Position numbers and translations under genes: made by a program | Part shown: piece after piece, positions 9,390 through 21,626 of the stretch | Layout of the letters: every line of letters starts with the position of its first letter | How positions within the stretch are numbered: position 1 is the stretch's first letter | Virus record (IMG/VR): IMGVR_UViG_2737471839_000017 | Coordinates: 1-26,854 of that record | Origin: a virus | Taxonomy: Duplodnaviria; Heunggongvirae; Uroviricota; Caudoviricetes | Length of the DNA: 26,854 nucleotides | Reading direction: 5' to 3' (one strand) | The notes under the pieces: model-generated | Database searches by the model: none | Told to the model about the DNA's origin: nothing | The model's input: only the letters and a program-made list of their open reading frames with translations

Positions 9390-9686
9390 TCACTCCTGTT
9401 CACTGGCCTCTTTGGCCATCTTCAAATACTGTTCAGGGCAATGCGCCATAACGCGCTGAAACAGTTCCAGCGCCAGATTGCGTTGCCCCTCATTAAATGC
9501 CATTGCCATAGCGTCCATCGGTGAGATAGCGGAAAACACCCGGCCTTTCTCCAGCACAGACCAGACAACGCGACGCCCCTGTTCACTGCTCATGACAAAG
9601 CGAATGTCATCAATTTCACGCTGTGCCATGTCACGTTGCTTACGGGCGTTTTCTTCTTTCAGTTGATCATCTTCGTAATCTGTCAT
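9390..9686 (-). CDS. Hypothetical protein (98 aa) between portal and scaffold
   Basis: ATGA coupling to the portal stop; charged helical sequence. Confidence 0.45.
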   Translation of the reverse strand: MTDYEDDQLKEENARKQRDMAQREIDDIRFVMSSEQGRRVVWSVLEKGRVFSAISPMDAMAMAFNEGQRNLALELFQRVMAHCPEQYLKMAKEASEQE

Positions 9687-11362
9687 TGTGATTGCCCACC
9701 CTGACCACTAACTGCATTCGCCATAGCTGACAAAACACTCGGATCCGAAGTTTTAGCTTCGCTTAGCGTCTTGGCACCCTGTGCCGCCGCCATCCCCATC
9801 GCCATCATTTGTTGCTGCTGTTGTTGCTGTGCCCGTTGCTGGCGAGCCTGCTCAACCTGTTCCTGCGGAACAATGACGGTTGGAGACACTCCGGACATAT
9901 CAGCGAATGCATCGATCGCCTGATCAACGTTGAGTTTGTCGAGAGCTTCTGGTTTCGCTTGCGCAAGTTGACCAATGAAGTTAACCGTGGACGCCAGACT
10001 GGACAGGCCGATAGACTTCTGCGCCTGAGCCATGACAGAAATGTATTCGACCTTCAGGGGCATACCTTCCATCGCGTCAGGCGGTGGCGGCAGCATGTTT
10101 TTACGCACCATCATCGAGAAAGCGCGGTCAATGAGAGGATTAAGACATTCGTCGTTCAGACGCTCCAGAACCGGCCCCAACATCAGAAGTTTTTCTTCTT
10201 TCATTTCGATCACTGCTTCAACAGGCATCGAGCGGGTATTGATGTTCTGCAACATCATGAACAGATCGACAAAGTAGGCGCTGTTAATGATTTGGCGAGT
10301 GTCCTGAATGTCTGCTACCAGATCTGCTGTACTGGGGTTAACCAGATAAGCAGGCCTGAAACCATCCTGACCAGTAATCTGATCGATATACGTGATGTCG
10401 CCAGGAAGAAGGGATGCGCGCTGATTCTTGAGGGAAGTCGGAGCAACCATCGGCGGATTGGTGGCTTTATCAATCAACTGTGACTTACGCTTCTGGAGAA
10501 GCTGCAATGCCTTAACAGGTCCAAGCGCCAGCATACCCGGGCATGATGATCCATAAACATCTTCGCCGTTAACTTCCCAGCGCGGAGCCATAATTGGAAA
10601 CTCATCGAATCCGGACTCACGCAACAACTTGTCGTTATCGCCGCCAACCTCGTAATAAACCGATTTGAATGGCTTGTTCTTGCTATCCAACTTCGATGTA
10701 TCGCGGTCAATGTTCGGGTAAACCGAATGCATCACTTCAATCCACTTCTCGTAGGTGCCTCTTTCCCACATGCTTTTTACGGATTCGCTGACGTTATTTA
10801 GCCCGAACTCCTGAACAAGCTGACGAACAGTCATAGAGAACTTGCGAAAACAGGTGTCAACACTGCCACGAGGTGAGTTAGCCAGGTAGTAACTGCCTAT
10901 CGGGAATGGCATTGTGCGAATGATGTCCTCATCATCCTCTAGTACCGCCATTGCACCGGTGCTGTATGTGCCGAGGCTTCCGTATAACTGCGGCAGCGAC
11001 TGATAGAGATTCGACTTATTGAACATATCGTTCATGCGGTTCTGCACCGCCTCAAGCCACAACTTAACAGGGCCATAATCCATCATTTCAGGATCTGGCG
11101 TAGCCAGGCGAAACCACGGACGGGCGGGGCTTGTGATGCCAGACATCATGCCGCTGGCGAGAGTGCGCGCCGCCATAGTCCCGGTCGAATCAATAATGCG
11201 TGTATTGCGTCGATCGTTACGGTTGACCTCAGAAGTCAGAAAGCGGGAACCACGCGGGTTGATGTAATCACTCAACTCGCGCCAGTGCGGTTCGAACGAC
11301 TGACGCTCGCTTTCAAGTTGTGCGAACTGTTTGTTCAATCGCTCTTTAGTTGTTTCCGCCAT
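9683..11362 (-). CDS. Portal / head-to-tail connector protein (559 aa)
   Basis: Size; C-terminal Gln/Ala/Met-rich tail (QQQQQQQMMAMGMAAAQGA) resembling the T7 gp8 C-terminus from memory; RBS GGAG; sits between terminase and scaffold. Confidence 0.75.
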   Translation of the reverse strand: MAETTKERLNKQFAQLESERQSFEPHWRELSDYINPRGSRFLTSEVNRNDRRNTRIIDSTGTMAARTLASGMMSGITSPARPWFRLATPDPEMMDYGPVKLWLEAVQNRMNDMFNKSNLYQSLPQLYGSLGTYSTGAMAVLEDDEDIIRTMPFPIGSYYLANSPRGSVDTCFRKFSMTVRQLVQEFGLNNVSESVKSMWERGTYEKWIEVMHSVYPNIDRDTSKLDSKNKPFKSVYYEVGGDNDKLLRESGFDEFPIMAPRWEVNGEDVYGSSCPGMLALGPVKALQLLQKRKSQLIDKATNPPMVAPTSLKNQRASLLPGDITYIDQITGQDGFRPAYLVNPSTADLVADIQDTRQIINSAYFVDLFMMLQNINTRSMPVEAVIEMKEEKLLMLGPVLERLNDECLNPLIDRAFSMMVRKNMLPPPPDAMEGMPLKVEYISVMAQAQKSIGLSSLASTVNFIGQLAQAKPEALDKLNVDQAIDAFADMSGVSPTVIVPQEQVEQARQQRAQQQQQQQMMAMGMAAAQGAKTLSEAKTSDPSVLSAMANAVSGQGGQSQ

Positions 11363-11376
11363 TTCAATGACTCCGG

Positions 11377-11583
11377 TTACTGACCAAGCAGCGTTTTACC
11401 GCTGGTATTAGCGGTTGATGTGTCGCCCTGAGAACCGGTAAGCAGCGTAGAACTACGACCAGCAGCAGCGCGACGGCGACGTGTTTCTTCGTCGCGGGCA
11501 TCAACAACGGCGGCATCCTGCTCCTGTGGTGCTGCCTGAACTTCTGGTGTTGCAGGCACTGATGGTGAGCTACCCATGCACAT
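11377..11583 (-). CDS. Small acidic Ala-rich protein (68 aa), first gene of the head operon
   Basis: ORF with GGAG RBS; the overlapping 11364-11603 frame is judged less likely. Confidence 0.3.
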   Translation of the reverse strand: MCMGSSPSVPATPEVQAAPQEQDAAVVDARDEETRRRRAAAGRSSTLLTGSQGDTSTANTSGKTLLGQ

Positions 11584-11651
11584 ATCAATGACTCCGTACG
11601 CAATTAAATTATTACCAATTTAACCACATATGATTTATTTATCGTAGATAG

Positions 11652-11688
11652 TTGACATTTAACGCACGAATTATTACCTTTCAGGTAA
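11652..11688 (+). promoter_or_regulatory. Candidate promoter (TTGACA at 11652-11657) with overlapping operator palindrome TTACCTTTCAGGTAA (11674-11688)
   Basis: Perfect -35 hexamer; weak -10 (TACCTT); operator-family site lies over the -10/+1 region. Confidence 0.3.
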
Positions 11689-12010
11689 CTAAAGAGTTCA
11701 TTCCGGTTACTAACCTGACTGGCTTGTCGTTAAATTGAACAGGTGGAGTGAGCTTTTATTTTGAGCAGTACGGCGTATGGCACATGCGCCGATAGCGGTC
11801 TGGATACGTTTAAGGGGCACCCTCCCTTGCTCGGGCAAACGAACCAGGTAGCCGGAATGTGCAAGTCGAGCGGTTTTATTCCGCGCACGGGGATTCACCA
11901 TCCCGGCGATTCGGTGTGACGCCTCGGAAGAGACGAGGGTGCAACGATGAGAGCATTTATGGAGCCGCGACAAAGTGTGGCGCCTTAACAGGCTAAGTGC
12001 TCTCAGCGTT

Positions 12011-12087
12011 GTGGCATTAGCTCAGTTGGACAGAGCAACCGCCTTCTAAGCGGTTGGTCGCAGGTTCGAATCCTGCATGCCACGCCA
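12011..12087 (+). tRNA. tRNA-Arg (anticodon UCU), 77 nt including CCA
   Basis: Hand-folded cloverleaf: acceptor GTGGCAT/ATGCCAC, D stem GCTC/GAGC, anticodon stem ACCGC/GCGGT with loop CTTCTAA, T stem GCAGG/CCTGC with TTCGAAT loop, CCA end. Confidence 0.85.
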
Positions 12088-12130
12088 GAATCACGCCTAA
12101 GGACCGTGATGCCAGAAGTTCCAGGGGCTT

Positions 12131-12173
12131 GGCGGTGATGGTTTCCCTTGAAGGACTATCACCGCCCTTTTTA
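12131..12173 (+). terminator. Intrinsic terminator downstream of the tRNA
   Basis: 9-bp stem GGCGGTGAT / ATCACCGCC with an 18-nt loop, followed by CTTTTT. Confidence 0.55.
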
Positions 12174-12250
12174 CAGCAGGACGCCATTGCGATGGCTTCA
12201 TGCTGTAAACCAGTACAGCCACGGAAGGCATAACTCATTGCTTCCAGTTC

Positions 12251-12274
12251 GCCCGGTTCGCCGGGCATTTTTTT
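12251..12274 (+). terminator. Second intrinsic terminator/attenuator immediately upstream of the 12286 ORF
   Basis: GCCCGG-ttcg-CCGGGC hairpin followed by ATTTTTTT; the T-run abuts the RBS AAGGTGAG. Confidence 0.5.
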
Positions 12275-12285
12275 AAGGTGAGATT

Positions 12286-12657
12286 ATGAACGACAAGCAA
12301 ATCGAAAAAGAAATCGTTGAGAAAGGCAAAACGGCACCGCGCGTTACGCCAGACCATATCGAAGGCATTATTGCTCAGGAGGCATATTTCACAGCAGAAG
12401 ATGGTGCCTTTGGCAAAGCCATAAAAGCGAAACATACTGGCGGAGAGGTAAACTACCAGCCGCACGAATCACTTTCTCTGCTGACGTTCTGCGTCCTGGT
12501 GCTGCGCAACGGCTTCACCGTCACCGGAGAGAGCGCCTGTGCAAGCCCGGAAAACTTTGATGCAGAAATTGGTCGGAAGATTGCCCGGCAGAATGCTGTA
12601 AACAAAATCTGGATGCTCGAAGGTTACTTGCTGAAGCAGAAGCTAAGCGAGCAATAA
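12286..12657 (+). CDS. Hypothetical moron protein (123 aa)
   Basis: Strong RBS AAGGTGAG 4 nt before the ATG; followed by a terminator; opposite strand to the flanking late genes. Confidence 0.6.
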   Translation: MNDKQIEKEIVEKGKTAPRVTPDHIEGIIAQEAYFTAEDGAFGKAIKAKHTGGEVNYQPHESLSLLTFCVLVLRNGFTVTGESACASPENFDAEIGRKIARQNAVNKIWMLEGYLLKQKLSEQ

Positions 12658-12677
12658 CACCGTGACATGTCACAAAC

Positions 12678-12704
12678 AGCCAGCCGATGAGCTGGCTTTG
12701 TTTT
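12678..12704. terminator. Bidirectional intrinsic terminator between the moron ORF and the terminase large subunit
   Basis: 7-bp stem AGCCAGC / GCTGGCT flanked by AAACAAA on one side and TTTGTTTT on the other. Confidence 0.5.
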
Positions 12705-12747
12705 ATCCTCACCAGAGGATATCTCCGTCATTATCCCCGCTAACGGA

Positions 12748-14223
12748 TTAAGCATAGGGATCGTAATCTGTAATGGCCTTGCCTTGCTGGTTCTGCTGCC
12801 CAGGAATTCGCAGACGCTTCGACACAGGGAAAGCAAACGTCAGCAGTAGCGCATCGCCTTTACCCGGCGAACGCCCAAGACGCTCTTTGATATCTTCCTT
12901 CGGTTCGATAACGATTTTACCGTCCACACGAACTTTGTACTCTGCCGCCGACAGGTCGTCTGCAGTTTCCTGGTCATCCAGCATGCCGCCCAGCCTCAGC
13001 CATGTCTTACATGAGTTGAACATCTCCCCACGCTTGTTAAGCATCTGCGGGTCAGTGGACGCACCGCCGAACGGAACAAGTTGCCATGTACGTCCCCAGC
13101 CATCACCGATTGACTTCAGCCCGGTTCCGTAACCGAAGTCGATGAATACTGCGTCAGCCTGGTACTGGTCTTCAAAGTCAGCGATACGCTTCGCCATAAT
13201 CAGATCGTCGGTGGTCTTGTTACCAGTCCACAGCACCTTACTGTGCAGCCCCTGCCGCAGGTATATCACCGCGTCATCAACGCCTGAATATGCCGGGTCA
13301 ACACCGATTATCACCGGAGCATGCGCCACCTGCGCAGCGGTCACCACCCGTTTCATTGCCTCATCAGTAAGACCGGTAGGGATAAACTGCAATTCAGATG
13401 CATCAGGGAATATGCCGCGCACACGGATTTTAACGAAGTCGCTGTCTTCCCCGTAGTCATCAACCCATTTCTGCAACTGCTGTTTGTTAGTGCCTTCCAC
13501 CGTCCGGCTGTCAATCTGCGCAGTTTTCCAGCGGTGTTTATATTTGCGGAAACATTCGCGAAAACGCCCGGTGTTACGTGTAGGGTTTCCGAACGCCACC
13601 CAGATAATCTCAGTGTCTTCGTCCGTAAGCGCACCCTCAGCAACTTCCCACACCAGATCCGCAATGTTCGACGCTTCATCGAATACCACGATGATGCGTT
13701 TGCGCTCGTTGTGTAGTCCGGCGAATGCCTCAGTGTTGTGCTCAGACCAGGGTATTGCGTCAGCCCGCCACCGCTTGTCGTGCCCAGGGTCATTGCTGTA
13801 CATCGCGGTAGCGGTACAGGTAAACCAGTCTTTCGTGATAGCAAGGTTCGACCACTTGATAATTTCCGGCCAGGTCTTCGTTCGTAGCTGGTTGTCGGTG
13901 TTGGCGGTCACCACGACCTTACAATCCTCGCAAGTGGACATGCCCCAGTTGATCAGCATTGAGATGAATGCGGATTTACCAATACCGTGACCAGAAGCGC
14001 GTGCCAGCATAAGCGGCTGATAGCGCGTCTCTGGATTCTGCAGGTGATCACGTATCTCTCGGAACGCATCAGCCTGCCACTGACGTGGACCGGTGGCATG
14101 TGCCAGTTCAGTCCCCTCTTCCCCCCACGGGAACGCATAGAGGGCATAGCCAAGCGGATCGTGAGTGAACCCTGCAATATCCTCGATCAACTGCTCTTCA
14201 GGAGATAACGCTGTATCTGTCAC
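12748..14223 (-). CDS. Terminase large subunit (491 aa)
   Basis: Walker A-like ARASGHGIGKS; C-terminal nuclease-type acidic motifs (VIIGVDPAYSG, FIDFGYG); GTG start overlapping the small-subunit stop (GTGA). Confidence 0.85.
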   Translation of the reverse strand: MTDTALSPEEQLIEDIAGFTHDPLGYALYAFPWGEEGTELAHATGPRQWQADAFREIRDHLQNPETRYQPLMLARASGHGIGKSAFISMLINWGMSTCEDCKVVVTANTDNQLRTKTWPEIIKWSNLAITKDWFTCTATAMYSNDPGHDKRWRADAIPWSEHNTEAFAGLHNERKRIIVVFDEASNIADLVWEVAEGALTDEDTEIIWVAFGNPTRNTGRFRECFRKYKHRWKTAQIDSRTVEGTNKQQLQKWVDDYGEDSDFVKIRVRGIFPDASELQFIPTGLTDEAMKRVVTAAQVAHAPVIIGVDPAYSGVDDAVIYLRQGLHSKVLWTGNKTTDDLIMAKRIADFEDQYQADAVFIDFGYGTGLKSIGDGWGRTWQLVPFGGASTDPQMLNKRGEMFNSCKTWLRLGGMLDDQETADDLSAAEYKVRVDGKIVIEPKEDIKERLGRSPGKGDALLLTFAFPVSKRLRIPGQQNQQGKAITDYDPYA

Positions 14224-14816
14224 TGATTACCATCCTGACGTTCTTTGAGTCGCTTCCTGGCTGCTGCTATGCGATCAGCAATTGTCACATTCACATTAAC
14301 ATCCAGACGTTCTTTGAACGCGTTGACATCAACATGCTTACCAATCAGCTCAAGGTTCTTCACCTTGTCAGGCCATTTAATTTTTTTGAGGATTGTCTCT
14401 ATCGAATCCTCGTTCATGTTCATGATGGTCGACGACAGATCAAAGCCACTAAGCGTAGTGCGCCAGATTTTCGGCCACTCGCGGATTGGCTTAAGGCTCC
14501 CATCGTCGTTGAGGATATCAATCACGTCCATCTGGTCGATCTCCACCAGGCGCATGAGAACGTAATCAGCACTGACGCGCATTCGTTTGTTGCGCTCCTC
14601 CATCAACTCGGCAATCCGTTTTTGAATGCGTTCATCGCGCATCATGACACTGGCTTTAACTGCCGCTGTATTTGGGGAAAATCCTGCGTTAATCGCTGCC
14701 TGAGTCTGGTTTTCAGGCGTTTTGATGTATGACTGGCAATAAGCCTCCTGCATTGCTGTTAGTGGCTTAAATTGCGTTGATTTGCGTTTATAGGTTTTAG
14801 GTTCAGCAGGCATCAT
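14220..14816 (-). CDS. Terminase small subunit (start probably ATG 14816 or 14813; listed ORF extends to 14894 through a terminator hairpin)
   Basis: Immediately upstream of and coupled to the large subunit; N-terminal region 'AMQEAYCQSYIKTPENQTQAAINAGFSPNTAAVKASVMM' matches the small-terminase pattern from memory. Confidence 0.65.
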   Translation of the reverse strand: MMPAEPKTYKRKSTQFKPLTAMQEAYCQSYIKTPENQTQAAINAGFSPNTAAVKASVMMRDERIQKRIAELMEERNKRMRVSADYVLMRLVEIDQMDVIDILNDDGSLKPIREWPKIWRTTLSGFDLSSTIMNMNEDSIETILKKIKWPDKVKNLELIGKHVDVNAFKERLDVNVNVTIADRIAAARKRLKERQDGNQ

Positions 14817-14856
14817 AACCACCGTGGTAATAGTTACCGTTGTGGTAATAGTACCA

Positions 14857-14934: not shown

Positions 14935-15273
14935 TCACACTATTAATTTCGTTTCATGCCAGCCTTTAGTCACCCAGCATTGCGAGTCACCATTACACGG
15001 GCATGAATTAACTGGAACTCTCTCGCCGCACTTACCGCAACGTTTTCCACTGATCGATTTTATACGCCCGTGCACGCGTGCATCATCCTGGCGGATCAGT
15101 AACGCAATATACTCACCAAATTCGTAAGGCGCACGCCCTGGGCGACGCGTGGCACAGTTACGCTCCAGCATTTCAATTTCCTGAGCATCAAGCACAATCT
15201 CCAGCTTACGCACACCAGATGCAGCTTGTCTGGCTCTCTGAGCGGCTTTGCGTTCTGCTGCGGATTTAGCCAT
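14935..15273 (-). CDS. Cys-rich small protein, late-gene regulator (Q-like antiterminator) candidate; start ATG 15273 with RBS GGAGAGAAGG (alternative 15288)
   Basis: C-terminal CGKCG...CPC cluster suggests a zinc-binding domain; last gene before a terminator and the terminase genes. Function is inferred from position. Confidence 0.4.
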   Translation of the reverse strand: MAKSAAERKAAQRARQAASGVRKLEIVLDAQEIEMLERNCATRRPGRAPYEFGEYIALLIRQDDARVHGRIKSISGKRCGKCGERVPVNSCPCNGDSQCWVTKGWHETKLIV

Positions 15274-15503
15274 CAACCTTCTCTCCATGCCTGGTTTCTG
15301 GTTTTAAGTCCATTGCGCTTGGCATTTCTCTGAATCCGTTTCAGTTCTTCCCTGGACTGCTCTGGAGTTATTTCTCCTCTCATAACTCGTTCAACAAGAC
15401 TCCTTCTAACTTCCATACTGTCAGCGATAAGACCTTGTTCTTCTAGCTTCTCGATATTCACGCGCTTATCAAGGCGAGCATCCCAACTTGAGCGTCTCAT
15501 CAT
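15273..15503 (-). CDS. Hypothetical small basic protein (76 aa)
   Basis: Strong RBS AGGAGG 5-6 nt upstream; ATGA coupling downstream. Confidence 0.5.
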   Translation of the reverse strand: MMRRSSWDARLDKRVNIEKLEEQGLIADSMEVRRSLVERVMRGEITPEQSREELKRIQRNAKRNGLKTRNQAWREG

Positions 15504-18357: not shown

Positions 18358-18374
18358 GATTTACCCTTGAGGTA

Positions 18375-18403
18375 ATTAAAAACCACATAAGACACGAAAT
18401 CAA
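18375..18403 (-). promoter_or_regulatory. Sigma70-like promoter for the accessory operon (-35 TTGATT, 17-nt spacer, -10 TTTAAT on the minus strand), with operator sites at 18361-18375 and 18424-18438
   Basis: Hexamers read on the minus strand; the perfect palindrome TTACCCTTGAGGTAA overlaps the predicted start site and contains the RBS. Confidence 0.45.
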
Positions 18404-18474
18404 TAGAGTTTAGAATGTTTTGTTACCCAACAGGTAACTATCGAGGCGTAAAAAAATGCGCTATCGCGCTGGTA

Positions 18475-19275
18475 TTACTTGATAAATCCTGCCGCCTTTC
18501 CTCGCCTGTATTCCTCCATCAGCCACTGCGCCGGTGTTATTCCCCCAAGGGTGGCGGCGTTAGGCATGCACCCGAAACTTCGCCCTGGTGGATGGTAAAC
18601 GTCTCTCCCTGTGTCCGGAGGTGTACTCATGGGTTCTGGCTTTGCCTGTATGCTGATCACCGGATCGGGTATCTGCTGCCCGGAATCCACCTTTTTCGCC
18701 CAATCATCGAGCAGCCTGCGTGCGTGTTTCTCAACCTCAATCTCGCTAAGCTGGCGCTGATACATTGCACGGCGGGTATCACATACGACCCAGTACATAA
18801 CCGGATGTCGCCACGGGAATCTTTCGGGACCACCAGGATATAAACTTTTTTCCTTGCTGTACCGGTGAAACTCCGCCATCACATCGTCAATGGTGACGCC
18901 AAGAACCATCTTGCTGTCTTTGCACCACTTGATAAATTGCCCTGGAGACGGCCAGAACGGAGATTCACTGGCGCGGGCGTGGCGCATACCAGCAGAAACC
19001 TGTTCACGGGTTCGGATCCCCCCTTCGGCAAACGCAGCAATCCACTGCTGTTTTGCAGCAACTTCCTGCTCTGGCGTCTTCAGGTTGGTTACCACTGCCG
19101 CCGGAAACAGTTGTTTCAGCTGTTTAAAAAGGGCATCAACAAGCCTCTCTGCTGACATGTTCACCACATTGTCATTGTTGACGTACTGATGCTCATAACC
19201 TGACATGCGAGAAAGGGCTTCTCCGTCACGGTTTTGTATCGCGGTAAAAACGTTGTTCACAAGAAATCCTCCCAT
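18475..19275 (-). CDS. Replication protein P-like (helicase loader), 266 aa
   Basis: Segment '...FPAAVVTNLKTPEQEVAAKQQWIAAFAEGGIRTREQVSAGMRHARASESPFWPSPGQFIKWC' parallels lambda P '...FPASLANRDQNEVNEIRRQWVLAFRENGITTMEQVNAGMRVARRQNRPFLPSPGQFVAWC' from memory. Confidence 0.75.
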   Translation of the reverse strand: MGGFLVNNVFTAIQNRDGEALSRMSGYEHQYVNNDNVVNMSAERLVDALFKQLKQLFPAAVVTNLKTPEQEVAAKQQWIAAFAEGGIRTREQVSAGMRHARASESPFWPSPGQFIKWCKDSKMVLGVTIDDVMAEFHRYSKEKSLYPGGPERFPWRHPVMYWVVCDTRRAMYQRQLSEIEVEKHARRLLDDWAKKVDSGQQIPDPVISIQAKPEPMSTPPDTGRDVYHPPGRSFGCMPNAATLGGITPAQWLMEEYRRGKAAGFIK

Positions 19276-20156
19276 GCTTCAGGGCTGTTCCAGTGCGGAA
19301 CGTTGTTATCAGGTAATGTTGATTGCTTCTGTCTGCTAATCTGCAGCCGCCTTGCCAGCTTCTGCTCCCACTGTGCCTGATGGTATGCCTTACCCTCAGC
19401 CATCCAGTAAATTCTGAACTCTGCAAGTTCCTGTGCCGTTGGCAGACTGTCCAGGTAGATCCCCTGCAATGAGCTTTTCCGAAGAAAGTCATCTGATGGC
19501 TGCCATTGTTCATGCATGACAAATTTGCCTAATTGCCCTGGCCCACCTGGAGGAACAAAGTTATTCATCACGGCGTTGTTTGCGCCGGGGTCATGGGGCA
19601 CGGAATCCCCGATTTTTGTCCTGCTCTCCCTCTCTTGGTTAAATGACTGGTTATATGACTGGTTCTGGATCCCGTTTTTGGGATCATTCAACATCCCGTT
19701 TTTGGGATCATTCAATATCCCGTTTTTGGGATCATTCAATATCCCGTTTTTGGGATCATTCAATATCCCGTTTTTGGGTATATTCCCGTTTTCGGGAACA
19801 TTACCGTTTTCGGGAACATTACCGTTTTCGGGTTCATTACCGTTTTCGGGTTCATTACCCCCTTCCCGTTTGCCTTTAATGTTCCCTTTTTTGGTTATAT
19901 TAAGAGAGAAAACCCGTACTCTTTTCGTCGCCCCCTTTCTCTCTCCGGTATCTGAAATAAGCCCCATTTTCATGAGCGATATAAGCCCGGCCTGCACGGT
20001 TTTTTTATTCAGGCAAGTGTCTTTAACGAGGCGTTCTATGCTGGGGTAGCAGAGGTTATATTCATCGGCTCTGTCAGCCATCGAGAGCAGTATGAGCTTT
20101 AATGATGAGCTACCTGGATCTGTCTCCCAGGCCCAATCTGTTGCATGTCTGCTCAT
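19257..20156 (-). CDS. Replication initiator O-like protein (299 aa) carrying the iteron-encoded peptide repeats
   Basis: Directly upstream of and overlapping the P-like gene; internal DNA iterons; RBS GGAG 9 nt upstream. Confidence 0.7.
   Translation of the reverse strand: MSRHATDWAWETDPGSSSLKLILLSMADRADEYNLCYPSIERLVKDTCLNKKTVQAGLISLMKMGLISDTGERKGATKRVRVFSLNITKKGNIKGKREGGNEPENGNEPENGNVPENGNVPENGNIPKNGILNDPKNGILNDPKNGILNDPKNGMLNDPKNGIQNQSYNQSFNQERESRTKIGDSVPHDPGANNAVMNNFVPPGGPGQLGKFVMHEQWQPSDDFLRKSSLQGIYLDSLPTAQELAEFRIYWMAEGKAYHQAQWEQKLARRLQISRQKQSTLPDNNVPHWNSPEAWEDFL
19670..19910. repeat. Origin of replication candidate: about 4.5 copies of a 24-bp iteron (ATCCCGTTTTTGGGATCATTCAAY), 4 copies of an 18-bp iteron (CCGTTTTCGGGWWCATTA), then an AT-rich stretch
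   Basis: Tandem direct repeats read in sequence; each unit contains a short inverted repeat (ATCCC/GGGAT or CCCG/CGGG); located inside the O-like gene as in lambda ori. Confidence 0.65.
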
Positions 20157-20372: not shown

Positions 20373-20470
20373 GGTAAGCCCTGTTATTGGTATTGGGATT
20401 ACGGTTATTTTGTGCTGACACAAAAAAAAGATCAACCATATTTGGTTTTTTATTACCTTTGAGGTACGAA

Positions 20471-20522: not shown

Positions 20523-20753
20523 TCATGAGTAGAAGAAGTATGCCAGTTCTGCTTTTGAGCGCAGCCATTGTCTTGTTTTACAGGCTTTAAAAAGCCCATC
20601 CATCAATACCTTACCTGGCATTTTGCGCTTACCTGTTAAGTGAGTCTGGATATAGTGACTCGTCGTTCCGGCTTCCTGTGCGAAGGCTTCACGCTCATCC
20701 GGAGTAAGTGCAAGCCAGTGCTTTTTGAAATCGAAATGTCCGTTATCGCTCAT
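20523..20753 (-). CDS. Cro/CII-like small HTH regulator (76 aa)
   Basis: Divergent from the repressor candidate across an operator-rich intergenic region; HTH-like segment 'FAQEAGTTSHYIQTHLTGKR'. Confidence 0.5.
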   Translation of the reverse strand: MSDNGHFDFKKHWLALTPDEREAFAQEAGTTSHYIQTHLTGKRKMPGKVLMDGLFKACKTRQWLRSKAELAYFFYS

Positions 20754-20784: not shown

Positions 20785-20891
20785 AATATTCACCTATAAG
20801 GTAACAAAAATCAAGGATAGTTACCCATGAGGTGCATTTACCTGTTGGGTAATATTGCTTTAAATTGAATCATCTTCTGATTCAGATATGA
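20785..20891. promoter_or_regulatory. Divergent promoter/operator region (OR-like): minus-strand promoter -35 TTGATT / -10 GAATAT (20785-20813), plus-strand -10 candidates TAATAT (20849-20854) or TATGAG (20886-20891), operator sites at 20820-20834 (imperfect) and 20837-20851 (perfect)
   Basis: Hexamers and palindromes read in sequence; also a GGTAAC...GTTACC inverted pair at 20799-20824. Confidence 0.45.
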
Positions 20892-20907: not shown

Positions 20908-21492
20908 ATGAAAAGTATCCAGGACGTCCGCAGGCAAAATCTCAACGACTTGATCGACCGTGAATTCAATGGTGTTCAGACGCGGATGGCAGAAAAACTT
21001 GGAACTCAGGCAAATCTGGTAAACCGCTGGGCTCTTGGCAAGAAGGTTATCGGCGACCAGGTTGCGCGAAAAATTGAAGCTGTCGCCAATAAACCACGTA
21101 ACTGGCTTGATATCGATCGCTCGCTTTCTCAGGAGGGTTTTCAGCCTGTCGGACCAAGCGACATTGGTCAGCTGGCGGCTCACAACCTGGAACGCTGGAT
21201 GAGCGAAAGCCGCGACCTTTCAACACAGGGAAAACTTCACCGCGCATCCGGCGTCGCCCAGGTGACAATCAGCCGCCTGTTAAACAATGAGGTCAGCGTT
21301 TCCATTTCCACCCTGGAGAATGTTGCATCTGCATTCGGGCGTCACGGATATGAACTACTGATTCACCCGCACGACCCTGCAACTATCAACTATGACCGCT
21401 CGCGCTACGCATTGTTACCTGAAACCGAGAAAGCAAAGATCGAAAGTTACATTGAATTTGTCATCAACCAGAACGAAAAAAACAAACAATAA
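20908..21492 (+). CDS. Tandem-HTH (XRE-type) DNA-binding protein, maintenance-repressor candidate (194 aa)
   Basis: Two HTH-like segments ('QTRMAEKLGTQANLVNRW' and 'LHRASGVAQVTISRLLN'); no Shine-Dalgarno before the ATG; followed by a terminator; cI-equivalent position. Confidence 0.55.
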   Translation: MKSIQDVRRQNLNDLIDREFNGVQTRMAEKLGTQANLVNRWALGKKVIGDQVARKIEAVANKPRNWLDIDRSLSQEGFQPVGPSDIGQLAAHNLERWMSESRDLSTQGKLHRASGVAQVTISRLLNNEVSVSISTLENVASAFGRHGYELLIHPHDPATINYDRSRYALLPETEKAKIESYIEFVINQNEKNKQ

Positions 21493-21549: not shown

Positions 21550-21626
21550 TTACCTAATGGGTAATTTTTTTAACTCATATCTATTGACATCAAACCAAAT
21601 ACGCATAATTATTACCTAAACGGTAA
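21550..21626 (+). promoter_or_regulatory. PL-like early-left promoter (-35 TTGACA 21584-21589, -10 TAATTA/AATTAT near 21606-21612) flanked by operator sites at 21550-21564 and 21612-21626
   Basis: Consensus -35, 16-17 nt spacer, AT-rich -10; two perfect TTACC-N5-GGTAA palindromes. Confidence 0.5.

Follow-up and report, generated by a model that had tools for sequence, protein, structure and literature searches.

The put sites of phage HK022 (putL and putR) and the putL-like site of HK639 are cis-acting antiterminator RNAs that bind the zinc-binding domain of the RNA polymerase β' subunit; in its solved structure, put RNA is 70 nt long and forms a V of two stems (PMC9378689). A put-like mechanism has also been suggested by Casjens and co-workers for LLS, an N-less relative of phage 2H10, with no RNA indicated (PMC12315714). 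Stx and other temperate phages, in turn, carry tRNA morons with argU-like tRNA genes. Here we analyze the gap between the large terminase and portal genes in a 26,854-nt stretch of tailed-phage DNA (Caudoviricetes; IMG/VR record IMGVR_UViG_2737471839_000017, positions 1 to 26,854; hereafter the window), which we compare with both kinds of system.

The window is a Uetakevirus of the phiV10/epsilon15 type, and its bases 11300-13000 are 97% identical to phiV10 and to the O157 typing phages 9 and 10. The terminase-portal gap is a single plus-strand transcription unit inserted in the row of packaging and head genes. It reads, in order, promoter and operator, leader hairpin, pseudoknotted core RNA, helix P5, tRNA-Arg(UCU), terminators T1 and T2, an open reading frame (ORF) of the gp49/66 family, and terminator T3 (Table 1). 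An earlier note, made from the letters of the window, had described an opposite-strand moron between terminase and portal, with a candidate promoter and operator at 11652-11688, tRNA-Arg(UCU) at 12011-12087, intrinsic terminators at 12131-12173 and 12251-12274, and a 123-amino acid (aa) ORF with a ribosome-binding site (RBS); all of these are present at, or a few bases from, those positions. Like a moron, the unit has its own promoter and terminators and sits between genes that are adjacent in outgroup relatives. A tRNA-Arg and a small ORF between terminase and portal are already visible in the GenBank annotation of phiV10 relatives, and are ordinary by themselves. What had been overlooked is the stretch passed over as about 300 nt of non-coding sequence, which is in fact a conserved structured RNA. 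The anatomy, conservation and RNA structure of this unit are well established; its function we infer, and we tentatively favor a put-like action on RNA polymerase.

A conserved, pseudoknotted RNA precedes the tRNA

The core RNA consists of four helices and a pseudoknot. Covariation was tested on an alignment of 41 distinct representatives, in which 95.4% of cells were paired, compared with 27-48% in slid controls. Twelve of the 29 pairs had changed on both sides, in 89 cells, and none of 500 shuffles was as good. One pseudoknot pair has gone from C-G to A-U in five representatives, including two otherwise near-identical sequences that differ at both positions. The core is read from the plus strand, because the U-G pairs of P1, found in 40/41 and 20/41 sequences, would become A-C mismatches on the opposite strand. 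Folding of the plus strand gives z = -3.3. The core covariance model scores 141 bits at the core and nowhere else in the window, the other early promoters included.

Upstream of the core, the leader hairpin module is kept in most Uetakevirus relatives and is missing from SPN9TCW. In other prophages (L015 and L067), a similar module is found downstream of the core.

Some database records would instead make this stretch protein-coding on the minus strand (PhiV10p04, 83 aa; mEp460 gp37; BUCT554 QQM14145). Minus-strand ORFs do exist at 12017-12268 and 11710-11973, and the first matches phrog_4647, which is itself a collection of these annotated ORFs. However, ORF 12017-12268 is the antisense of the tRNA and T1, neither ORF has a Pfam match, and single-base indels and compensatory paired changes run throughout the region. 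On these grounds minus-strand coding potential was rejected, and we regard it as extremely improbable. The RefSeq record of phiV10 annotates PhiV10p04 opposite the tRNA and T1 (L001:3218-3469, minus strand) and leaves the tRNA itself unannotated; spurious ORFs are likewise annotated across the RNA in mEp460 (gp37) and BUCT554.

The core is widespread in enterobacterial phages

A sensitive BLAST search with 11584-12010 matched 11770-12010 at about 83% identity in the lambdoid phages cdtI, mEp460, 2H10 and Ayreon and in Stx2c phages. Among 5426 complete E. coli genomes, 1840 matched the core region, and 554 of the matching places lie on plasmids. Pattern scans of species-representative genomes gave 24 stretches, all but two from Enterobacteriaceae; of these two, one is a chance match and the other, a short contig labelled Bacillota, truly carries the core. 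Viral contigs supplied at least 120 further core loci, and the combined loci reduce to about 108 unique cores.

The core is an RNA family found neither in Rfam 15, RefSeq annotation nor the searchable literature. A Rfam 15 scan with E up to 1, covering window positions 11300-13000 and four lambdoid and Salmonella loci (L003-L006), returned only the tRNA here, with C4 and isrK matches elsewhere. RefSeq annotates nothing at the core matches in the complete E. coli genomes, and a full-text search with the invariant 19-mer of the core, as DNA, RNA and reverse complement, gave chance hits in C. elegans papers only. With a covariance model of the core, the annotation of thousands of genomes could be corrected.

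Helix P5 and an exchangeable cargo follow the core

Ten different P5 sequences from other loci, folded one by one, all form helices of 16-18 bp, and the 3' strand of P5 ends at the first base of the tRNA. RNAalifold returned no consensus for gap-free mini-P5 constructs, in which bulges shift the register. The element that fills the slot behind P5, which we call the cargo, is here ARAGORN's single tRNA in the window and matches RF00005 at 73.3 bits against a gathering score of 29. The identity elements for arginyl-tRNA synthetase are A20 and C35. Both are present, as the A after GG in the D-loop (AGUUGGACA) and as position 35 in the anticodon tct.

Of about 108 unique cores, 85 are followed by P5 and cargo. 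The tRNA-Arg(UCU) follows 19, with different P5 inserts; the other cargos comprise at least four more recurrent types of tRNA-like RNA, 72-133 nt long among those folded, which are closed by GUGG...CCAC and have a T-arm-like hairpin on the 3' side. A T1 homologue follows the cargo in lambdoid copies, and does so in 68 of the 85 unique elements. Because homologous T1 copies follow varied cargos behind a shared core and P5, core-P5-cargo-T1 behaves as a cassette with exchangeable cargo.

Several features of individual cargos were also observed. The L122 cargo (523-645 of the oriented element) has a canonical D-arm, a GGGUUCGAAUCCC T-arm and about 50 extra bases in the variable region, and those of L110 and L135, like it, look like real tRNAs with extras; locus L016 gave a tRNA-Ile(aat)-like call. 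Some elements have two tandem P5-plus-cargo units behind one core (copies L025, L037, L009 and L041). Several loci also contain a recurring module, GGTGATCC...GTTGGTGAA...CCAACCAC...ACACAAC, which sometimes lies upstream of the core (L029). A hammerhead-like CUGAUG...GAAA in cargo type B was discarded as merely a covarying hairpin loop with no Rfam hit.

The exchange of cargo raises the question of whether the cargo is the functional part, as rare-codon supply or as a decoy or replacement for tRNAs hit by host anticodon nucleases. Core and P5 would then be a platform for its expression and processing, a structured 5' leader that helps the tRNA-Arg or tRNA-like RNA to fold, to be processed by RNase P or to remain stable. 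Consistent with this, at least five types of cargo alternate behind an unchanged platform, and the acceptor stem of tRNA-Arg starts with the GUGG seen in the other cargos, as though adapted to this position. The tRNA also has the score of a normal tRNA, with its UCU anticodon and A20, and AGA-rich early genes exist for it to serve. However, the core is the most conserved part and occurs cargo-free in P1-like plasmids and other prophages, and a pseudoknotted 170-nt domain with invariant loops far exceeds the needs of a processing aid. Furthermore, E. coli tRNAs are not known to need such a leader. We consider the platform clearly unlikely.

Codon usage bears on when such a tRNA would be of use. 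The 33 window ORFs use AGA at 7.0 and AGG at 4.0 per 1000 codons, where E. coli usage is about 2 and 1. The earlier note suggested checking late genes for AGA/AGG enrichment, but the capsid-region, portal and terminase genes have only 0-1 AGA each. The AGA-rich genes are early or middle ones, namely 15273-15503 (minus strand; 8 AGR in 77 codons), the regulator 14935-15288 (minus strand; 5 in 118) and the O-like replication gene 19257-20156. The first two, both upstream of the terminase genes, probably make most use of the phage tRNA. To judge from these codon counts, an early-expressed tRNA fits the early and middle genes better than the late genes first proposed.

Terminators and the downstream ORF

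Energies of T1, T2 and T3 each beat all 200 shuffles. Both T1 and T2 are a hairpin plus U-tract on the plus strand; T1 stems differ among relatives yet stay complementary, and T2 covaries, with a compensatory variant GCCCAC/GTGGGC in epsilon15 and PAT1. T3 is a rho-independent terminator in the phiV10 annotation. Its description as bidirectional is partly upheld, with a good U-tract on the plus strand and a weak one, only UGUUUGUG, on the minus strand. Because no terminator in the unit is strong on the late strand, it is plausible, as had been supposed, that late transcription crosses the insert antisense.

The 123-aa ORF matches PF13876 (Phage_gp49_66) at E = 9e-35 with 119.5 bits against a gathering score of 27, over profile positions 1-82 of 82, and corresponds to PhiV10p03 and epsilon15 gp50. 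Its RBS comes directly after the U-tract of T2. The same slot holds unrelated ORFs in SPN9TCW, the Klebsiella phage and Tyrion. Between T1 and T2, the segment 12174-12250 folds with z = -1.7, which is not significant; together with T2 it could form a small hairpin-plus-U-tail RNA. For the small hairpin at 12090-12110, energy alone is no better than in shuffles.

Table 1. Features of the terminase-portal gap and related elements in the window.
Feature	Position	Strand	Remarks
Portal gene	9683-11362	-	PF12236 match
gp3-like gene, 68 aa	11377-11583	-	ORF listing
Repeated motif AATTATTACC, first copy, in divergent control region	11607-11616	+	Exact copies at 11607, 11669 (11669-11678) and 21607
Promoter, sigma-70-type	11652-11688	+	TTGACA 11652-11657, 17-nt spacer, TACCTT 11675-11680
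Operator inverted repeat TTACCTTTCAGGTAA, overlapping promoter -10	11674-11688	+	Read from sequence
Leader hairpin module with conserved GTCGTTAAAT	11692-11757	+	Fold -22.9 kcal/mol, z = -2.9
Core RNA, four helices and pseudoknot	11769-11942	+	Covariation, covariance model
Core P1	11771-11779 with 11783-11791	+	
Core P2, apical part variable	11800-11803 with 11844-11847	+	
Invariant 19-mer GGTAGCCGGAATGTGCAAG in core	11847-11865	+	
Core P3	11865-11868 with 11904-11907	+	
Core P3b	11891-11893 with 11901-11903	+	
Core pseudoknot	CACC 11896-11899 with GGTG 11913-11916	+	
Core P4, loop GAAGAGA	11922-11926 with 11934-11938	+	
Helix P5 (CAACGATGAGAGCA ... TGCTCTCAGCGTTG), variable insert (here two small hairpins)	11942-12010	+	Fold -37.5 kcal/mol, z = -4.5
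tRNA-Arg(UCU), CCA encoded, in cargo slot	12011-12087	+	ARAGORN tct; Rfam tRNA
Small hairpin ATCACG-CCTAAGGAC-CGTGAT after cargo	12090-12110	+	Conserved among Uetakevirus relatives irrespective of cargo
Terminator T1, 14-bp stem then CUUUUUAC	12131-12173 (stem 12131-12166)	+	-22.8 kcal/mol, z = -5.8
Inter-terminator segment, two hairpins	12174-12250	+	Kept in all Uetakevirus relatives including epsilon15
Terminator T2, GCCCGG-UUCG-CCGGGC and 7 U, abutting RBS	12251-12274 (stem 12251-12266)	+	-12.7 kcal/mol, z = -3.5
RBS AAGGTGA and 123-aa ORF 12286-12657	12275-12657	+	N4 Gp49 / Sf6 gene 66 family, phrog_322
Terminator T3, between convergent ORF and large terminase gene	12678-12704 (stem 12678-12697)	.	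-13.0 kcal/mol, z = -3.8
Large terminase gene (TerL)	12748-14223	-	ORF listing
cro-like gene, adjoining cI-like repressor gene	20523-20753	-	

A candidate repressor-controlled promoter heads the unit

The promoter is kept in all relatives, although a stricter consensus promoter scan of the window did not list it among its sites. With 0.33 sites expected, the window contains 10 copies of the operator pattern TTACC-N5-GGTAA, a count that none of 100 shuffles reached. Paired operator-like sites at 20790/20838 and 21550/21612 flank the cI-like repressor gene (20908-21492, plus strand), and the depositors of epsilon15 annotated repressor and IHF sites in the homologous gap region. Because the operator recurs in the cI/cro region, we read the promoter at 11652 as repressor-controlled and early. 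The unit is thus probably repressed in lysogens and expressed early after induction or infection, going by the placement of these sites.

Nine other operator-like copies, mostly paired, lie at 14816-14848, 18361-18437, 20453-20467, 20790-20852 and 21550-21626. One pair, immediately downstream of the gene for a phrog_536 regulator, is within the 5' portion of the small terminase gene. The block 11604-11640, in the divergent control region, is nearly invariant among Uetakevirus relatives.

Age of the insertion

An opposite-strand unit was found in every relative examined: phiV10, typing phages 9 and 10, ZX5, SPN9TCW/SPN1S, epsilon15 and PAT1. It is also in Klebsiella phage ST512-KPC3phi13.3, Enterobacter phage Tyrion and BUCT554, as well as in prophages of other enterobacterial genera. 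In outgroup Pseudomonas phages, whose terminases are 50-53% identical, the gene order is the same and TerL is followed by a gp3-like gene and the portal with a gap of 2-11 nt; in a Vibrio phage (terminase 41% identical) two small same-strand ORFs lie between TerL and portal. None of the Pseudomonas and Vibrio outgroup phages examined has an opposite-strand unit in this gap. Because all genus members examined have the unit and the outgroups do not, the insertion is an old one, which gene order places at or before the base of the genus Uetakevirus. The idea of an insertion into the gene row is therefore upheld by the outgroups, whereas a recent acquisition is at odds with a unit that all Uetakevirus examined carry, with its contents swapped.

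The contents can also be lost. Epsilon15 has a deletion from the middle of P2 to the middle of T1 (L004 2499-2995), so that the core beyond it, P5, the cargo and half of T1 are gone. Behind the operator, an additional insertion of about 130 nt is common to epsilon15 and PAT1. The TerL genes of PAT1 (L009 4102-5477 and beyond) and 65FD (MT580116 16744-19170) are about 2.45 kb long and match the 491-aa query in two pieces, which suggests that TerL of these Salmonella phages holds an intein or another insertion.

These observations bear on the first proposal for the locus, a recent lysogenic-conversion moron whose own promoter works in the lysogen, whose tRNA serves AGA/AGG-rich late genes and whose T2 acts as an attenuator. 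The unit's own promoter and terminators, its opposite strand and its lack in outgroup phages are as expected of such a moron, and T2 does abut the RBS. However, the unit is in every genus member examined, and the main late genes have 0-1 AGA. In addition, the promoter shares its operator with the immunity region around cI and cro, so it is probably silent in lysogens and the unit is not a classic lysogen-expressed moron. As for an attenuator, no structure competing with T2 was noticed in the folds run, and no search was aimed at alternative pairing. We judge a recent moron of this kind very unlikely.

The core in lambdoid phages, P1-like plasmids and prophages

In lambdoid phages with no annotated N gene, core-P5-cargo-T1 is the first thing transcribed from an early-left promoter of the oL/pL type. 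In mEp460 the RNA follows two TTGC-N7-GCAA operators, a type also present between cI and cro, and in one Stx2c phage it follows TTGACA-16-CATAAT with a perfect palindrome. The lambdoid locus L005 has T1 at -21 kcal/mol, then a 90-nt hairpin T2 at -46 kcal/mol, with the first early-left gene within 35 nt. In 2H10 the operon continues downstream of the RNA to the excisionase gene (xis). No N gene is annotated in mEp460, 2H10 or Stx2a_WGPS2. Beside a Rha-type regulator gene, which the mEp460 depositors likened to an antirepressor, lambdoid loci also match the Rfam C4 antisense RNA and isrK (L005:706-894 and L006:776-964, both minus strand), a second RNA-based control module in N-less lambdoids.

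In P1-like plasmids the core stands alone between tRNA-Ile and ban, in an operon headed by a C1 operator pair. These copies, and some in prophages (L094), have no P5 or cargo, and the core runs straight into a gene. Most other prophage contexts have a promoter-like site 30-160 nt upstream of the core, while about one third have no recognisable promoter; several of the promoter-like sites come just after a terminator and have palindromes of other sequence types. At L114:3085-3365, a core without P5 or cargo and with no promoter recognised upstream has a small, divergently oriented zinc-ribbon-like gene on one side. On its other side is the terminator of a convergent gene for a 152-aa membrane protein. 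A protein partner common to all contexts was considered and rejected, as the first downstream ORFs fall in many unrelated clusters.

A possible antiterminator

We tentatively favor the reading that the core is a put-like, cis-acting antiterminator on RNA polymerase, though we would stop short of calling it probable. The core would fold on the nascent transcript and act in cis on RNA polymerase as HK022 put does, and a fraction of transcripts would then pass T1 and T2 into the ORF, whose RBS abuts T2. Readthrough of this kind in lambdoids would extend into the early-left genes as far as xis. An RNase P cut at 12010/12011 would free a chargeable argU-like tRNA, which could help decode the AGA-rich early and middle genes.

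In favor of antitermination, the RNA lies behind early promoters, and lambdoid carriers have no annotated N gene. In two unrelated phage groups, moreover, two strong terminators separate the RNA from the first ORF and leave no space in which a promoter could fit. Furthermore, core P1 and the putL sites of HK022 and HK639 share a basal helix and its flanks, ACGGCG...CAUGCGUCG, including a G-U at the third pair, and putR keeps the basal-helix type of putL. The motif ACGGCG-N3-20-CATGCG[TC]CG has 86 copies in 3.07 Mb of phage and prophage sequence, 84 of them in the core family, a count that is a lead and not proof given that the motif was chosen post hoc and the 3.07 Mb is enriched for the core family. 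The remaining two copies are exactly HK022 putL and the putL-like site of HK639. A regular-expression hunt for more put-like features in HK022 and HK639 gave noise only.

A number of points weigh against an antiterminator of the put kind. The core covariance model has no significant hit to the HK022 and HK639 put sites, with filters at default or off, and the sizes differ, at about 170 nt with four helices and a pseudoknot for the core and about 70 nt with two stem-loops for put (PMC9378689). Epsilon15 keeps promoter, T2 and ORF though the core, cargo and half of T1 are lost, and because T2 and the ORF are retained there without the core, readthrough of T2 cannot strictly need it. That T1 moves as part of the cassette is easier to square with a self-contained RNA gene. 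Past the ORF, the plus strand of this phage holds nothing but terminase antisense, which leaves processive antitermination little purpose, and some prophage copies are directly followed by the terminator of a convergent gene. Finally, TTACC-N5-GGTAA is a putative prophage repressor site, assigned from the positions of its copies together with the depositors' annotation of epsilon15.

Several of these points suit a different reading, in which the core-P5 RNA is itself the product, an abundant and stable early RNA acting in trans on a target in the host or the phage. RNase P would make its 3' end, which would be protected in P5, and T1 would end the primary transcript; the model is MALAT1, whose 3' end is formed by RNase P cutting at the tRNA-like mascRNA. 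The 3' strand of P5 ends exactly at tRNA position 1, and every cargo type has the acceptor-like GUGG/CCAC stem and 3' T-arm-like hairpin, the features by which RNase P recognises its substrates. T1 comes with the cassette in those 68 of 85 elements, the roughly 19 invariant unpaired bases (GGTAGCCGGAATGTGCAAG) look like a binding surface, and the downstream genes are wholly different among contexts. Epsilon15 grows without the core, as expected for an accessory function, and some copies are alone between convergent genes. On the other hand, no target is known, and where P1-like and some prophage copies run into a gene (ban; L094) without P5 or cargo, the core would be a 5' untranslated region and not a released RNA. 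The two terminators ahead of essential early-left genes in N-less lambdoids would also go unexplained. We place a trans-acting product on the unlikely side, and retain put-like antitermination as the working interpretation.

Comparison with known systems

Compared with tRNA-carrying morons, the locus is likewise a self-contained promoter-gene-terminator unit in the late operon with an AGA-decoding tRNA. Unlike them, it shares its operator with the immunity region and so is probably not expressed in the lysogen, it is ancestral to its genus, and its tRNA fills a slot behind a conserved RNA where several other cargos can stand instead. This exchange of tRNA-like cargo could be relevant to defence systems that target tRNAs and to counter-defence. 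P1/P7 C4, P4 CI and MALAT1-mascRNA resemble the cassette in placing a tRNA-like element, with ends that RNase P would define, in a longer transcript. Unlike C4, the core is not matched by the Rfam C4 and isrK models, which hit elsewhere in lambdoid loci.

Lambda nutL has the same position as the lambdoid core, where the early-left operon begins. The loop of P4, GAAGAGA, is similar to nutL boxB, and the 3' strand of P5 reads UGCUCUUU, like boxA of nut and rrn sites. A boxA or nut site was nevertheless rejected, as the boxA-like string is base-paired, and where it reads GCGCUC or ACUCUC instead, its partner strand has changed to match. Unlike lambda nut with its N protein, moreover, the core occurs in carrier phages with no annotated N gene.

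The position of put is shared more fully. The lambdoid core lies downstream of a repressor-controlled early promoter and upstream of terminators and early-left genes, with no N annotated, and in the window an operator-bearing promoter comes first, with T1 and T2 ahead of the ORF. Unlike put, the core has P5, a cargo that is a tRNA or resembles one, and a terminator of its own behind it, and it also occurs in the head-gene gap of a podovirus and in P1. The core is thus not a member of the put family as defined, and by analogy may work like put. In a broader and somewhat doubtful scenario, it would be a second, larger class of RNA polymerase-binding antiterminator, distantly related to put or convergent with it via the first hairpin. 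It would then be the missing early antitermination device of N-less lambdoids (mEp460, 2H10 and Stx2c/Stx2a_WGPS2 types), recruited to the ban operon in P1 and to a small early operon in Uetakeviruses, and built into a cassette with an exchanged cargo processed by RNase P. Because the core is placed there and no N is annotated, early antitermination in N-less lambdoids is now testable with a defined RNA. The leader sits exactly where lambda has nutL and HK022 has putL, and the excision and recombination genes of its carriers stand behind two strong terminators.

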